Below are positions 50,057-56,898 of a stretch of DNA of 64,000 nt, in pieces. The stretch comes from an uncultured Haloferula sp. (GTDB lineage Bacteria; Verrucomicrobiota; Verrucomicrobiia; Verrucomicrobiales; Akkermansiaceae): NCBI GenBank assembly GCA_965652295.1, contig CBFGTS010000011.1, positions 1-64,000 of the forward strand, given 5' to 3'. Each line of letters begins with the position of its first letter. Within the stretch, counting starts at the first letter, position 1. The notes beneath the pieces are model-generated. The model was not told the DNA's origin and made no database searches. It saw nothing but the letters and a program-made list of their open reading frames with translations. The position numbers were made by a program, and so were the translations under genes.

Positions 50057-50839
50057 ATGAAGGAACTCAAGGATACCCAGAACGAGCGGGACGACCGGAA
50101 TCTGCCGATCGACCGCGTGGGCGTGAAAGGTCTGCGCTTCCCGGTGGAGGTGCGTGACAAGGATGGCTCGACGCAGCGATCGGTGGCCACGGTGGCTCTC
50201 GCCGTGGACTTGCCGGAGCACTACAAGGGCACCCACATGAGCCGCTTCGTGGAAGCGCTCAACGCCCATGGCGGCTGCCTCGATGTCCGCACGATGGCGT
50301 CGCTGCCGGCGGAGCTGCTGGAGCGGCTGGACGCTCGCAAGGCGCATGTGGAGTTCGAGTTCCCATTCTTTCTTTCAAAATCCGCGCCGGTGACCGGTCG
50401 CCCGGGACTGATGGACTACGTGGTGCGCTTCGAAGTCGAAGCCGAACTCGACGGGCCGGTGGATTTCATCGTCACCATCCAGGTTCCGGTGGCCACGCTC
50501 TGTCCGTGCTCGAAGGAAATCAGCGACCGTGGCGCCCACAATCAGCGGGGGATCGTGACCTACTCGGTGCGCTTCCGCGAACCGGTGTGGATCGAGGACT
50601 TGATCGCCTTGGTCGAGCGTTCCGCGAGCTGCGAGCTCTACAGTCTGCTCAAACGTCCGGATGAAAAGGCGGTGACGGAGCGGGCTTACGACAATCCGGT
50701 GTTCGTCGAGGATCTGGTGAGAAACGTGGCTTCCCGCTCGAACGCTCACGACGCGATTCTTTGGTATCGCGTGGAGGCCGAGAATTTCGAGTCGATCCAC
50801 AATCACCAAGCCTACGCGGTGCTTGAAAAACGCGTCTGA
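50057..50839 (+). CDS. folE2: GTP cyclohydrolase IB
   Basis: IDRVGV, KGTHMSRF, LCPCSKEIS..GAHNQR, LKRPDEK, ESIHNH. Confidence 0.97.
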   Translation: MKELKDTQNERDDRNLPIDRVGVKGLRFPVEVRDKDGSTQRSVATVALAVDLPEHYKGTHMSRFVEALNAHGGCLDVRTMASLPAELLERLDARKAHVEFEFPFFLSKSAPVTGRPGLMDYVVRFEVEAELDGPVDFIVTIQVPVATLCPCSKEISDRGAHNQRGIVTYSVRFREPVWIEDLIALVERSASCELYSLLKRPDEKAVTERAYDNPVFVEDLVRNVASRSNAHDAILWYRVEAENFESIHNHQAYAVLEKRV

Positions 50840-50974
50840 ATCCCGCGCCTCTTCCAATGTAATCCGCATGATTCCGCGCAGTTGAAAAACTCGCGGAGAA
50901 TCTTCGATTACTTGAGAGTAAGCTTAAGCAAAGGATTTCCGCTGGTTTTTCAAGATTAGCGGCCTGTCGGAATT

Positions 50975-51270
50975 GTTGGTGTGTGTCCCAGCTGGGGGCT
51001 GGGCCTCAACTTCAGGATCTGATCCGTTTCGGCGGTCCGCAAGGGGTGCATGATTTCTGGGGGGAAGTCATGCGCCCCGCTTCGTTTTCAGTCGGTGGTT
51101 CTCCGAGGTGACTCCGGTCCGTTCCCGGCTGGGGGGATGACCAGAAAGGGACCGGAGTCGTCTGGGGGGAGAGGTTCGGAGTCCCGGCCGCTTTCCTTTC
51201 GGCCGCGCACCGGTTTGATACGTTCATCATCCACGAAACCGGCGGGGCGAACATAACGGCATCGCGCCCC
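50975..51270 (+). ncRNA. Candidate structured ncRNA with repeated UGGGGG hairpin loops
   Basis: Series of stems in a 450-bp gap between convergent genes; G-U pairs favour the + strand; no family recognised. Confidence 0.45.
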
Positions 51271-51289
51271 CCCGATCGAGGGAGGAGCT

Positions 51290-54200
51290 TCAGATCGAGC
51301 GGATCATGGCGATCGCCTCATCGAGCATCCTTTTCGGCTCCGTCGCGGTGAGGCGAGGGAAGCGTTTGCCTTCCAGGAAGAGGTAGTCGCCGTTGCGGTG
51401 GATCATGAGGCGCTGGCCCTGGATTTCCACCGAGGCGATGCCGACGTGGGCGGCGAGGAGGCGGAGGCGGGTGACGTCGAGGAGGTTGAGGACGGGTTGT
51501 GGCAGGCGGCCGAAGCGATCGGTCCAACGTTGGATCAAGGCGTCGAGTTCGCGTTCGTTGGCGGCTTCGGAAAGTTCGCGGAAGGCGGAGACCCGGAGCT
51601 GGGTGTCCTCAAGCCAGGCGGCCGGGAGATAGGCGGGCAGGCCTTTCGTCGGTGCCGCGAGATGCGCGGCTTCACGGACGACCAGGAAATCGGCCTTGAA
51701 GGCGCATTCATGGCGGTGGATGGCCTGCTTTCCGCGGAGCCGATCGACGGACTGGCGGAGCAGCCGGCAGTAGAGGTCAAACCCGATGGCGGCGATCTGG
51801 CCGGACTGCCGCGTGCCTAACAAGTTGCCGGCACCGCGGATTTCGAGGTCGCGCATGGCGATGCGGAAGCCGGAGCCGAGGGCGGTGTATTGCTTGATGG
51901 CGTGGATGCGTTTCCGTGCATCGCCGGTGGTCAGCATTTCCCGAGGCAGGAGGAGGATGGCGTAGGCCTTCTCACCGGCGCGGCCGACGCGGCCGCGGAG
52001 CTGATAGAGGTCGGCGAGACCGAAGCGATCGGCGCGGTCGATGAGGATGGTATTGGCATTGGGGATATCGATGCCGGTCTCGATGATGGTGGTGGCCAGC
52101 AGGACGTCGGCCTCGCCATTGACGAAAGCGCGCATGACAAGCTCGAGTTCGTCTTTCTCCATCTGCCCGTGGCCCACCAGAATGCGGGCCTCGGGGACCA
52201 GCTCGGCGAGGCGGTTGCGGACCATCTCGATGGATTTGACCCGGTTGTGGAGAAAGAAGACCTGCCCGCCGCGGGCCAGCTCGCGGCGGATGGCCTCGCG
52301 GATGACGCGCTCATCGTAGGGCGTGACGGTGGTGTGGACCGGGACGCGGTTGGGCGGCGGGGTATCGATGGTGGACATGTCGCGCGCGCCCATCAGCGCC
52401 ATGTAAAGCGTGCGCGGGATGGGCGTGGCGGAGAGCGTGAGGACGTCGATCTGCCGGAACATCTCCTTGAAGCGCTCCTTGTGTTTCACGCCGAAGCGCT
52501 GCTCTTCATCGACGACGGCGAGGCCGAGGTCCTTGAAGGCGATGTCGGAGGAAAGCAGGCGGTGGGTGCCGATGACGATGTCGACCGAGCCATTGGCGAG
52601 GCCCTCCACCGTGGCGCGGGATTCGGCGGCGGTACGGAAGCGGTTGAGGAGATCGATGCGGATCGGATAATCGGACATCCGCTCGCGGAAGGTGCGCCAG
52701 TGCTGCTCGGCAAGCACGGTGGTAGGGCAGAGGATGGCGACTTGTTTGCCGCCGGTGACGGCCTTGAAGGCGGCGCGGATGGCGACCTCGGTTTTGCCGA
52801 ATCCGACATCGCCGCAGACGAGACGGTCCATCGGCTTGGCCGACTCCATGTCGCGCTTGGCCTCGCCGATCGCACGGAGCTGATCCGGTGTCTCGGTGTA
52901 GTGGAAGGACTGCTCGAATTCCCACATCCAACGCGAGTCGGCGGGGTGGGCGAAGCCTTCGTTCGTCTGTCGCTCGGCCTGGACGCGGAGCAGTCGCGCG
53001 GCGTAGTCGAGGATCGCGTCCTCGGCCTGTTTGCGGACTTTTTTCCACGCGGTGCCGCCGAGTTTCGACAGCTCCGGATCCTTTCCTCCGAGCCCGACGT
53101 AGCGCCCGACGAGGTGGGCCTGGTCGATGGGCACCGCGAGCGAGGCACCATCGCGGTATTCGATCAGCAACTCCTCGCTCTCCTCGTTACTACGGATCCC
53201 GGAGAAGCGGCCGATGCCGTATTCGCTGTGGACGACGAGGTCGCCGTCGTTGATCTCCTCCAGCGAAGCCTTGGCTTCGGCGGCCCGGCGGCTGGTGCGG
53301 GTGACGAGAGGAGCGGTGGTGCGGTAGCGGCCGAAGATTTCAGCCGAGGAAAGGATGGCGACCTTGGCGGTGGGGACGGTGAAGGATTCCATCAACTCGC
53401 CGGTGAGCGTCTCAAAGTGACGGTCGGAGCCGGCGGGGAGGAGCTCGATGAAGCGGACGGCCTCGCCTTGGTTGGCGAAGACGATGGCGATCTGCCAGCC
53501 ATCGCGATCCCAGCGGGCGAGTTGCTGGACGAAAGCGTCGCGGCGGATTTCCTCCAGAACGAAGTCGCCTGCCTCGAAGCGTCCGAACGGCTCGGCGTGG
53601 CAGGCGGTGGAAAAGTCCTCTTCGCGGCCGGGATCGGCGGGCTGCGGGGTGATGACCACGGCGGCGTCGCTCTGCGCGGGGTCTTCGGTCAGCTCGATGA
53701 CGAGATCGCCGGGCCGGAGGTAGTCGCCGACCGTGCCGGCCATTTCGGGGTCGGCCAGGGCGAATTCGGCGCGGTCGAGCTTGCGGGCGGAGGTCTGGGA
53801 ATCGAGGTCGAACTCGCGGATCGATTCGATGTCGGTATCGAAAAATTCGATGCGGAGAGGCATCGGGACGTGCCAGGGAAAGACATCGAGGATGCCGCCG
53901 CGGACGGCGAACTGGCCGCGCCCCTGGACCAGCGGAGCGCGCTCGAAGCCCTCGGCGGCAAGCTGGTCGATGAGCCGCGCGGGATCGAGCGGATCACCGC
54001 GTTTCAGCACCACTCGGGAAGCGGAAAGCTCGCCGGGCGGCGGTGCGGGGTGATCGAAGGCATCGGGGGCGGCGAGGACGACGCAGCGTTGGGCACGGTG
54101 GATGAAACCGAGGGCGTCGATGCGTTCGGCGGCGGCCTCCGGGTCGGGGGCTTCGTCGCCCTGGATGCCGAGGATCGGGTCGGGAAGGATGCGGACACGG

Positions 54201-54445
54201 ACGCCCCAGAGCCGGAACTCGGCGGCCAGACGTTCGCGGTTTTTGGGCGAGGGATCGAGGATCCAGGCGCGGTCGCGGGGAGTGGGGTGGCCAAGAATCA
54301 GGGCGATCAGCCAGGCGCGGGCGGCGGGATCGACGTGATCGAACACAGTGCGTCCTCCGCCAGCGGCCACGGCGGCCAGGCGTTGGGCGAAGTCGGGCTG
54401 GTCGGCGGCGGGGCGCAGCCAGCGATCAGGCGCCGGGGAAGGCAC
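51290..54445 (-). CDS. mfd: Transcription-repair coupling factor
   Basis: RGGILDVF, CarD/RID GDLVVH..YGIG, CGDVGFGKTEVA, DEEQRFGV, QLRGRVGR, TRCF C-terminus; GTG start inferred. Confidence 0.97.
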   Translation of the reverse strand: MPSPAPDRWLRPAADQPDFAQRLAAVAAGGGRTVFDHVDPAARAWLIALILGHPTPRDRAWILDPSPKNRERLAAEFRLWGVRVRILPDPILGIQGDEAPDPEAAAERIDALGFIHRAQRCVVLAAPDAFDHPAPPPGELSASRVVLKRGDPLDPARLIDQLAAEGFERAPLVQGRGQFAVRGGILDVFPWHVPMPLRIEFFDTDIESIREFDLDSQTSARKLDRAEFALADPEMAGTVGDYLRPGDLVIELTEDPAQSDAAVVITPQPADPGREEDFSTACHAEPFGRFEAGDFVLEEIRRDAFVQQLARWDRDGWQIAIVFANQGEAVRFIELLPAGSDRHFETLTGELMESFTVPTAKVAILSSAEIFGRYRTTAPLVTRTSRRAAEAKASLEEINDGDLVVHSEYGIGRFSGIRSNEESEELLIEYRDGASLAVPIDQAHLVGRYVGLGGKDPELSKLGGTAWKKVRKQAEDAILDYAARLLRVQAERQTNEGFAHPADSRWMWEFEQSFHYTETPDQLRAIGEAKRDMESAKPMDRLVCGDVGFGKTEVAIRAAFKAVTGGKQVAILCPTTVLAEQHWRTFRERMSDYPIRIDLLNRFRTAAESRATVEGLANGSVDIVIGTHRLLSSDIAFKDLGLAVVDEEQRFGVKHKERFKEMFRQIDVLTLSATPIPRTLYMALMGARDMSTIDTPPPNRVPVHTTVTPYDERVIREAIRRELARGGQVFFLHNRVKSIEMVRNRLAELVPEARILVGHGQMEKDELELVMRAFVNGEADVLLATTIIETGIDIPNANTILIDRADRFGLADLYQLRGRVGRAGEKAYAILLLPREMLTTGDARKRIHAIKQYTALGSGFRIAMRDLEIRGAGNLLGTRQSGQIAAIGFDLYCRLLRQSVDRLRGKQAIHRHECAFKADFLVVREAAHLAAPTKGLPAYLPAAWLEDTQLRVSAFRELSEAANERELDALIQRWTDRFGRLPQPVLNLLDVTRLRLLAAHVGIASVEIQGQRLMIHRNGDYLFLEGKRFPRLTATEPKRMLDEAIAMIRSI

Positions 54446-55699: not shown

Positions 55700-56770
55700 T
55701 TAGAAGTCGGTGCCGGTCTTCAGCTCAAGGTAGCAGCGCGCCGCGGCGACCCGGTTCTCGACATTGAGCCGTTGGAAAATCGCCTCCATGTGCTTTTCCA
55801 CGGTGCGCGGGCTGATGCCGAGAATGGTGGCGACCTCCCAGCTCGTCTTGCCTTCCGCGATCCATTCCATGATCTCGCACTGACGCGCGGTGAGCACGAG
55901 CCGGGTGCGGTCTTCACCTTGTTTGCGGGTTTGGGCGACGGTGAAGAGGTAGAACTGCTTCGTCGCGTTGGGGAGGACGTAGAAGGTCGCGGGTCCGGCA
56001 CCGAGGTCCAACTCCAGCGCCTGGAACCTCGCCCGCAAGGGATCCTGCCACGAACTTTCGACCCTTGAGAGAATCCGTCGCAGGTCTTCGTCGTCGATCT
56101 GGCGAAACGCCTCGTCGGCAGGCCAATGGGCCTCCACGAAGCGGATCGCCTCGTAGTTCACGGGCATCACGCCGCCGTCCTGCTTCATCGAAAACGCCAT
56201 CACCGGGCCGGCACCGCTCTGGGTGGTGAAAAAGTTGTGCACCTCACGTTCGACGTTCTGGCCGGCGAGGCGGTGGCACAGGGTTCGAGCGGCATAGATG
56301 ACGATGTTGAAGCGTTCGATCGCTTCCTCGCTGAATTGAGACTCGGCCCGGTGGATGACGAGTAGCGCGCTACGCCGGCTCCAGGAAAACAGCGTCCCCA
56401 TGAGGGTGTCCGAAACCACGCCCTTGCCGTGCATTTCGCGAACGAAGCGGCTCTCGCGATACTCCGAGATGTTGGTCTCCCTGCTTACGGCCCAGCCGAG
56501 TTCTTCGGACGAGGGTTTCAGGATCCGGTGGCTGAGAGGATGCTCCTCAAGGAGTTCGTTGAGCTTCTGAAGGGTTTCCGCTCCGTTGCCCCCGACCTGG
56601 GCGAGGGTGCGGATCACTTCCACTCTCCGATTGTCGAAGAGCTGATAAACCACCGCATCATGCCCCTCCACCAGCCGGGGCAGCTCGGCCATGATCCACC
56701 CGCAAAGCTCCTCGAAAGACGAGGCGTTCCTCATTTTCGCCAGCAGATGGAATGTGGATTCTCCGAGCAC
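55700..56770 (-). CDS. LuxR-type HTH transcriptional regulator with GAF-like sensor region
   Basis: LTARQCEIMEWIAEGKTSWEVATILGISPRTVEKH. Confidence 0.88.
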   Translation of the reverse strand: MLGESTFHLLAKMRNASSFEELCGWIMAELPRLVEGHDAVVYQLFDNRRVEVIRTLAQVGGNGAETLQKLNELLEEHPLSHRILKPSSEELGWAVSRETNISEYRESRFVREMHGKGVVSDTLMGTLFSWSRRSALLVIHRAESQFSEEAIERFNIVIYAARTLCHRLAGQNVEREVHNFFTTQSGAGPVMAFSMKQDGGVMPVNYEAIRFVEAHWPADEAFRQIDDEDLRRILSRVESSWQDPLRARFQALELDLGAGPATFYVLPNATKQFYLFTVAQTRKQGEDRTRLVLTARQCEIMEWIAEGKTSWEVATILGISPRTVEKHMEAIFQRLNVENRVAAARCYLELKTGTDF

Positions 56771-56781: not shown

Positions 56782-56898
56782 GGTTGTCCACGCGTACATT
56801 CCCATAATTTCTACGTTTTATCCAGCTCGATCTCGCGTTTCTCAGGGGCGCTCTTTGGGCGTTGCCCTCGCTTCACCTGCCTCTTAGCTTCGCTCCGG

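Follow-up and report, generated by a model that had tools for sequence, protein, structure and literature searches.

The CsrA/CsrB and Gac/Rsm systems employ multi-copy sRNAs with repeated loop motifs and a shared upstream site, and these loop motifs imitate those repeated in the start regions of exopolysaccharide mRNAs. The CsrB/RsmZ sponges carry repeated GGA loop motifs, and the cuckoo RNAs carry CCUCCUCCC loops, an anti-Shine-Dalgarno motif. Chaperone-free pairing between G and C loops is described as established for the 6C RNA (PMC6486639) and for RosA (PMC8216469). The 6C RNA of Actinobacteria (RF01066) is reported to have two homopolymer-tipped hairpins that form G-C pairs near start codons without a chaperone, with G-rich ribosome-binding sites as targets (PMC6486639). 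RosA of Bacillus subtilis, a single gene reported as a sponge only, is a stand-alone sRNA whose G-rich single-stranded regions pair with C-rich sRNAs, the G-C pairs being essential (PMC8216469). According to its description, RsaI (RsaOG) of Staphylococcus aureus binds C-motif sRNAs through two G tracts and mRNAs through a separate CU-rich region (10.1101/278127).

The window analyzed here, a stretch of 64,000 nucleotides (G000:C11:1-64000), belongs to a genome of 4.37 Mb and 63.5% GC. It contains a 450-bp gap (50840-51289) between folE2 (50057..50839, +; PF02649, E 3.5e-94), which is outside the RNA system, and mfd (51290..54445, -), which encodes TRCF, CarD, UvrB-interaction, and helicase domains. 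A sequence-only reading had placed in this gap a single plus-strand RNA with four G loops. The hairpins are present as described, namely the hairpin at 50987-51003, the 15-bp stem at 51043-51078, which includes two T-G pairs, its tract GCTTCGTTTTC, the 11-bp stem at 51110-51159, and the fourth motif at 51162. Folding of both strands nevertheless splits the element into two genes. The first hairpins fold better on the plus strand (-10.6 vs -4.6, -15.7 vs -13.2, and -27.8 vs -18.4 kcal/mol), whereas the third folds better on the minus strand (-31.5 vs -28.5 kcal/mol), as does its homologue in the relative G021 (-26.3 vs -19.3). The proposed plus-strand RNA structure is thus retained for the first hairpins and given up for the third. 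The third and fourth CTGGGGGG are part of a minus-strand RNA whose open C6 tracts complement the G loops, and the CTGGGGG(G) motif looks constant on the plus strand because two convergent RNAs bear complementary loops. It is therefore highly probable that the gap holds a member of a multi-copy G-loop sRNA family and a convergent C-loop partner gene, both predicted.

The gap had also been said to lack a credible ORF. This is borne out insofar as the ORF at 51012-51254 (-) had no match in a Pfam search and its counterpart in G021 has a stop at codon 3, but one ORF of at least 80 aa does exist, and it is the only one of that length in the gap. A search of positions 50700-51600 against Rfam 15 gave sR53 (16.5 bits, inside mfd) as the sole match and none in the gap. 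The supposed link to the folE2-mfd context did not hold: among the matches listed for 29 relatives, neither mfd nor a G-loop element was found in the fetched flank 3' of folE2. Judged by gene order, the G-loop element is independent of this context.

The predicted G-loop small RNA (50915..51089, +) is about 175 nt long between its putative ends and was delineated by a CM match and by folds. The CM R1 matches 50950-51094 with 47.4 bits, the locus itself being a training member. Upstream lies a shared promoter-like motif, TGAAAA-N16-CGAT (50883..50908, +), which resembles promoters of the ECF/alternative-sigma type. The more general form TG(A/G)AA(A/T)-N16-CGAT is found upstream of 5/10 G-loop loci in G000, some of which served to derive the motif, and of six G-loop RNAs in G021 and G041, at a frequency of 78 matches per 8.7 Mb on both strands. 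The RNA begins with a 5' hairpin (50939..50962, +), the one at -10.6 against -4.6 above, followed by the G-loop 1 hairpin (50987..51003, +) with the tip GCU-G5-C, in which three G of the run 50994-50998 are unpaired at p > 0.9. A loop 1 ending in GGC occurs at this locus and in three other members of 50. G-loop 2 (UCU-G6-A, G run 51059-51064) tips the terminator hairpin, which a terminator scan identified together with its U tract at 51043..51089 (+). Only 3-4 G per loop are predicted to be open, which counts against the pairing model set out below. A motif of the form GRAATYRTG-N-GRAT-N-TAC occurs upstream of three C-loop RNAs and, at 56794-56811 (-), upstream of a LuxR-family gene (55700-56770); a variant lies immediately upstream of the G-loop promoter (50859-50873, -).

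The predicted C-loop small RNA (51100..51245, -) converges on the G-loop gene and has a colinear homologue in G021, which is likewise convergent and beside a G-loop RNA (score 89 vs a maximum of 57 in 2000 shuffles preserving C runs). It contains a 19-bp hairpin (51110..51159, -), three of whose pairs are G-U and whose open loop of 10 nt, CAUCCCCCCA, includes the C run 51131-51136 and is unpaired at p of about 1.0. A second C tract, UCCCCCCAGA (51161..51170, -), is the exact 10-nt complement of G-loop 2. The putative promoter GAT-N16-CGTTATG (51252..51277, -) is kept in the G021 homologue, and this site is its sole intergenic match in the genome. The C-loop hairpin has no clear terminator behind it in this genome, and the 3' end of the C-loop RNA may extend into the G-loop gene.

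Homologues in relatives were found by patterns and CM because blastn, run with the gap against 40 relatives and with the C element against 34, returned nothing beyond short matches at chance level. Ten G-loop loci were counted in this genome, in which the CM detects seven at E ≤ 1e-5. The two-run pattern matched 31/35 genus genomes, with reversed controls near zero, and the CM detected the family in 35/35 (12 genomes being outside the training set), with 1-8 matches each, a few of which are the opposite strand of the same locus. In an order-wide CM search that scored 21 candidates per genome, both sister-genus genomes of the order draw were also matched; at the limited sensitivity of the CM, 30 genomes from another genus of the same taxonomic family and 105 from other families gave no convincing member. 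Matches beyond the two genera were discarded as plain terminators or as lacking the G-loop architecture. The strict pattern matched 4/300 other phylum genomes by sequence only, and the window-type pattern had no match in metagenome contigs. Six viral matches without the hairpin-terminator layout were rejected, and a loose hairpin scan and a two-G-run pattern both proved too unspecific. The family occurs in named records of Luteolibacter, Haloferula, and Akkermansiaceae, the group to which the host probably belongs.

Among 50 sequences, the loops are constant (Y-G5-8, mostly then A) and the stems are divergent. The stems of these members contain 99 G-U pairs against 13 A-C, which indicates that the G strand is the folded strand. 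In an alignment of the 49 sequences, from 23 genomes, that fold with both hairpins, the terminator stem is 97% paired, compared with 35-62% in slid controls, and 14/16 pairs show changes on both sides. The conservation and covariation in relatives called for by the sequence-only reading are thus both observed. Covariation is limited to the terminator stem because the MAFFT alignment recovered only two pairs of the first G hairpin, and terminators covary generically. G-loop hairpins are in excess over chance (33 strong G5+-loop intergenic hairpins vs 7-16 in eight dinucleotide shuffles). The impression that they belong to no recognized family was confirmed, eight G-loop loci yielding only tRNAs from Rfam 15 at the gathering threshold. 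A high-copy, REP-like DNA repeat was rejected, as blastn found two short paralogue matches of 81-82% and the seven CM matches at E ≤ 1e-5 have divergent stems. The genes beside G-loop RNAs are varied, housekeeping or unknown, and in every orientation, as expected of stand-alone genes. The G-loop RNAs therefore appear to form a new, multi-copy, structured sRNA family absent from Rfam.

Several variants of this architecture were observed. Other subfamilies have a different upstream motif ending in GGCATT. Loci L104 (G000 C4:171073-171576), L373, and L366 represent a longer type of G-loop RNA, with as many as four G loops, whose gene is syntenic, adjoins a SelR gene, and faces another G-loop gene, and two G-loop RNA genes stand tail to tail at G020:C325:4278-4594. 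Loci L379, L374, L375, and L371 have a degenerate first loop and an upstream palindrome, with a G-loop terminator in three of the four. On contig C6 of G000, a gene for an RRM protein and one for a G-loop RNA are divergently oriented (C6:125232-126015, L105). Two Actinomycetota MAGs (L215 and L332; L343, L344) contain homologous two-G6-loop RNAs with a terminator and a common upstream CCGTAATGTTCTGG, located between the same two convergent genes, which when read by eye resemble a DNA-glycosylase-like gene and an MFS-like transporter. These MAGs gave no Rfam match for the RNA pair and no 6C RNA above the cut-off, and the pair is possibly a G-loop counterpart in the phylum of the 6C RNA.

Ten C-loop RNAs are predicted in this genome, and G- and C-loop genes adjoin each other on contigs C3, C11, C13, and C21. 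Such adjacency is found only in G000 and G021, as the 41 other loci examined in relatives have no C-run cluster within 700 bp, and this restriction counts against the pairing model. In relatives, C-loop RNAs are multi-copy, have 3-6 C runs, and mostly end in a C-loop terminator; 27 C-loop loci of the genus were folded, some of which turned out to be mRNA leaders. A palindrome of the form ACGYGATYRCGT stands upstream of many of them. A C-loop RNA is also present in the sister-genus genome G439. Ten C-loop loci gave only tRNAs from Rfam 15. A triple-TCCCCC pattern for the range of the C-loop RNAs was discarded as unspecific outside the genus (108/141 genomes). Loci L108, L109, L177, L178, and L180 form a C-loop RNA subclass with a GUGUGUGU stretch before the last hairpin. 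Palindromes resembling ACGYGATYRCGT occur in G000 at C1:191696, C1:337280, C1:42388, C7:64052, C12:43987, and C3:225367, where they precede multi-C-tract leaders, one C-loop RNA, and one G-loop RNA.

The loops of the two convergent RNAs are complementary in the pairs UCUGGGGGGA / UCCCCCCAGA and GCUGGGGG / CCCCCAGC, with a predicted net binding of -7 to -12 kcal/mol per contact after opening costs; the duplex of G-loop 2 with UCCCCCCAGA is predicted at -22.1, or a net -11.9 kcal/mol. The consensus of the C runs, U-C5-6-R, is the complement of Y-G5-6-A. A 5' flanking U is present in 27/32 C runs of this genome and 135/151 of relatives, against a background of 35%, a count that is partly forced by the search pattern, and U is found in 91/98 cases in the complement of the G loops. 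Beyond this first base, at least three further flank bases match a G loop of the same genome in 17/32 C-RNA motifs of G000 (vs 17% of C5+ runs) and in 7/32 of G016 (vs 4.5%). CU-G6 loops make up 13/34 in G000 plus G021 and 4/46 elsewhere, and C-AG motifs make up 11/39 where the G loops shift to CU-G6 and 12/121 otherwise. Permutation of genome labels over 12 genomes gave p = 0.047 at 3 nt and 0.19 at 2 nt, paralogues and kin not being independent in these flank-match tests. Matching past the first flank base thus appears to be partial, above background in G000 and G016 and marginal across the 12 genomes. In relatives, 62/151 C motifs have a 3' A, which would be mismatched with the common CC-G6 loop, and flanks of GG or AG (37/151) are no commoner than the 22% background; together with the weak permutation result, these observations count against the pairing model.

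Pairing with C-rich mRNA leaders had been suspected from the window, and a candidate is provided by the conserved C-tract leader of the priming EPS glycosyltransferase (TIGR03025 match); pairing with such leaders in bulk was rejected. The leaders of this genome are C-rich in general and have no Shine-Dalgarno signal, and C5 runs are depleted rather than enriched relative to shuffles in signal-peptide leaders (37/508 vs about 70), PEP-CTERM leaders (8/64 vs 11-13), and other leaders (115/1709 vs 200-230), as counted with a home-made gene caller that did not place the EPS glycosyltransferase start correctly. The candidates are instead a small conserved set. Three or more C runs occur in 5/2356 leaders (0.8 expected), and several multi-run leaders are upstream of secreted proteins and have the palindrome. 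The EPS glycosyltransferase has 2-5 C5+ runs at -70..+30 in 29/29 usable orthologues, one of 30 being left out as it lacks upstream sequence and two start codons being uncertain, whereas folE2 controls have them in 0/30. Typically, one run ends a few bases before the AUG, and the palindrome is present at this leader in 14 orthologues. The orthologue in the sister-genus genome G439 has four C runs, and on its contig C86 (L425/L121) a G-loop RNA gene starts directly 3' of the glycosyltransferase's downstream neighbor. In G000, the start region is predicted to bind the G loops at -18 to -20 kcal/mol, without opening costs. In families without a CM-found G-loop RNA, 16, 7, and 3 of 26 orthologues have 0, 1, and 2 runs, respectively. 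These 26 come from two G-loop-negative families in which the gene is inside an operon; the co-distribution is thus one clade contrast, which counts against the pairing model.

A predicted G-loop RNA family, a predicted C-loop RNA family, and one conserved leader have a common complementary motif within one clade. We propose, at a probability of roughly 0.5, that the G loops pair with C-tracts and block translation and that the C-loop RNAs titrate the G-loop RNA. Structure, strand bias, conservation, complementarity, and the co-occurrence of the three parts were computed; transcription, pairing in the cell, repression, and the direction of control we infer. The two guanine loops of the plus-strand RNA likely base-pair with UCCCCC(C)R tracts, which are suggested as partners because they are the only conserved multi-C single-stranded stretches found. 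The G-loop RNA would nucleate with its 3-4 exposed G, unzip to 8-10 pairs, and cover the C-tracts around the start codon of the EPS glycosyltransferase mRNA and possibly those of a few secreted-protein mRNAs. A duplex a few bases before the AUG would block initiation. The open cytosine tracts of the C-loop RNAs are likely decoys, and titration of the G-loop RNA by these multi-copy RNAs, many of which appear to have the same upstream palindromic site as the C-tract mRNAs, would turn the module on. More tentatively, and at rather less than even odds, the parts may constitute an all-RNA, Csr-like switch for exopolysaccharide and surface proteins, operating without CsrA, Hfq, or a Shine-Dalgarno signal, with the G-loop RNA as repressor, the C-loop RNA as sponge, and co-evolved loops. 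In such a switch, a two-armed G-loop RNA would clamp pairs of C-tracts at start codons, and this locus would be a repressor-decoy gene pair. Hfq was not found in the genome, nor was CsrA (PF02599; the control detects it in 3/14 genomes), and a CsrA-type sponge is thus not supported.

The main rival of the pairing model is a protein that binds UCCCCCR and represses the C-tract mRNAs, with the C-loop RNAs soaking it up, as CsrB does with CsrA, and the G-loop RNAs serving mainly as RosA-like sponges that mask the C-loop RNAs and thereby release the protein. The 3-6 motif copies per C-loop RNA, in loops and linkers, resemble a classic protein-sponge layout, and U-C5-6-R accepts both G and A at its 3' end. 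Candidate C-tract readers in the genome are four RRM and two Rho genes; the RRM gene divergent from the C6 G-loop gene would fit, although no such neighbor is seen at other G-loop genes. According to the predicted energies, pairing of the G loops with the mRNA tracts would occur in any case, and we consider this reading doubtful. It shares its sign with the pairing model, as both predict that expression of C-tract mRNAs falls with the G-loop RNA and rises with the C-loop RNA. The roles would be exchanged if the C-loop RNAs were 6C-like regulators of G-rich mRNA sites, the G-loop RNAs sponges only, and the C-tract leaders devoted to another purpose, in direct analogy with RoxS/RosA and RsaG/RsaI as reported (PMC8216469; 10.1101/278127). 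The RF01066 CM gave a weak best score in this genome, 25.5 bits for a C-loop RNA on C13, below the cut-off of 47 bits; a Corynebacterium genome used as control likewise failed to reach the cut-off, which shows the limited sensitivity of this search. This exchange of roles is improbable, however, as the Shine-Dalgarno signal that such regulators would target is lacking, leaders contain G5 runs less often than C5 runs, none of the 29 glycosyltransferase start regions has a G5 run, and the conserved leader tracts would be left unexplained.

Two further readings dispense with loop pairing. Two invariant G6 loops on variable stems could also mark a protein sponge or a G-quadruplex dimer, with complementarity as a by-product, but CsrA is absent, loop 1 ends in GGC rather than GGA, and flank complementarity is above background, making this very unlikely. 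Finally, the minus-strand element could be nothing more than the 3' untranslated region of mfd, with the plus-strand hairpins as the folE2 terminator region. A search of RNA runs gave one soil metatranscriptome (0.05 share). In favor of this reading, one RNA-library contig without strand information covers 51190-51393 across the mfd stop at a depth of 2.7, and the C-loop hairpin has no clear terminator. Against this, homologues of both elements occur in other contexts with conserved upstream motifs of their own, and the folE2 context is not conserved, so that we regard it as scarcely probable. No contig of the RNA library covers the G-loop gene, and the sRNA cluster on contig C21 is not covered among the RNA pieces listed; holes in contigs prove nothing, although the lack of a G-loop transcript counts against our favored pairing model.

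If the pairing model is true, free-living Akkermansiaceae would have a post-transcriptional exopolysaccharide switch and a route by which an sRNA blocks translation without a visible Shine-Dalgarno signal, and the usual polarity of C-rich regulators and G-rich sponges would be reversed. With three parts and a conserved target named, the model is testable in cultured Luteolibacter or Haloferula. A literature search, with subscription journals and supplementary motif tables largely outside its scope, found no description of such RNAs in this group. Compared with Csr/Rsm, the likeness lies in multi-copy motif RNAs, exopolysaccharide mRNA starts, and a common upstream site, whereas the motif here is UC5-6R instead of GGA, CsrA is absent, and the proposed repressor is an RNA; unlike CsrB/RsmZ, the G-loop RNA has two loops only. 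The loops differ from those of cuckoo RNAs in being pure G or C runs, again without an Rfam match. Like RosA, the G-loop RNA is, by prediction, a stand-alone gene with 3-4 accessible G per loop and C-rich partner sRNAs in the same genome. It differs in belonging to a multi-copy family whose G runs are hairpin loops, one of them carried by the terminator, and in the complementary tract borne by conserved mRNA leaders, for which reason regulation may fall to the G-rich RNA and sponging to its C-rich partner. With RsaI it shares two G tracts directed, by prediction, toward C-motif sRNAs, although here a single set of G loops is predicted to contact sRNAs and mRNAs alike, and there is no Rfam match. 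The two homopolymer-tipped hairpins recall the 6C RNA in opposite polarity, as the plus-strand RNA has G loops and the genome has no Shine-Dalgarno signal, while the minus-strand partner has C tracts of which only one is in a long hairpin loop. The G-loop RNA thus belongs to none of RosA, RsaI, or 6C; it resembles RosA and RsaI in its predicted pairing and is like a mirror image of 6C.
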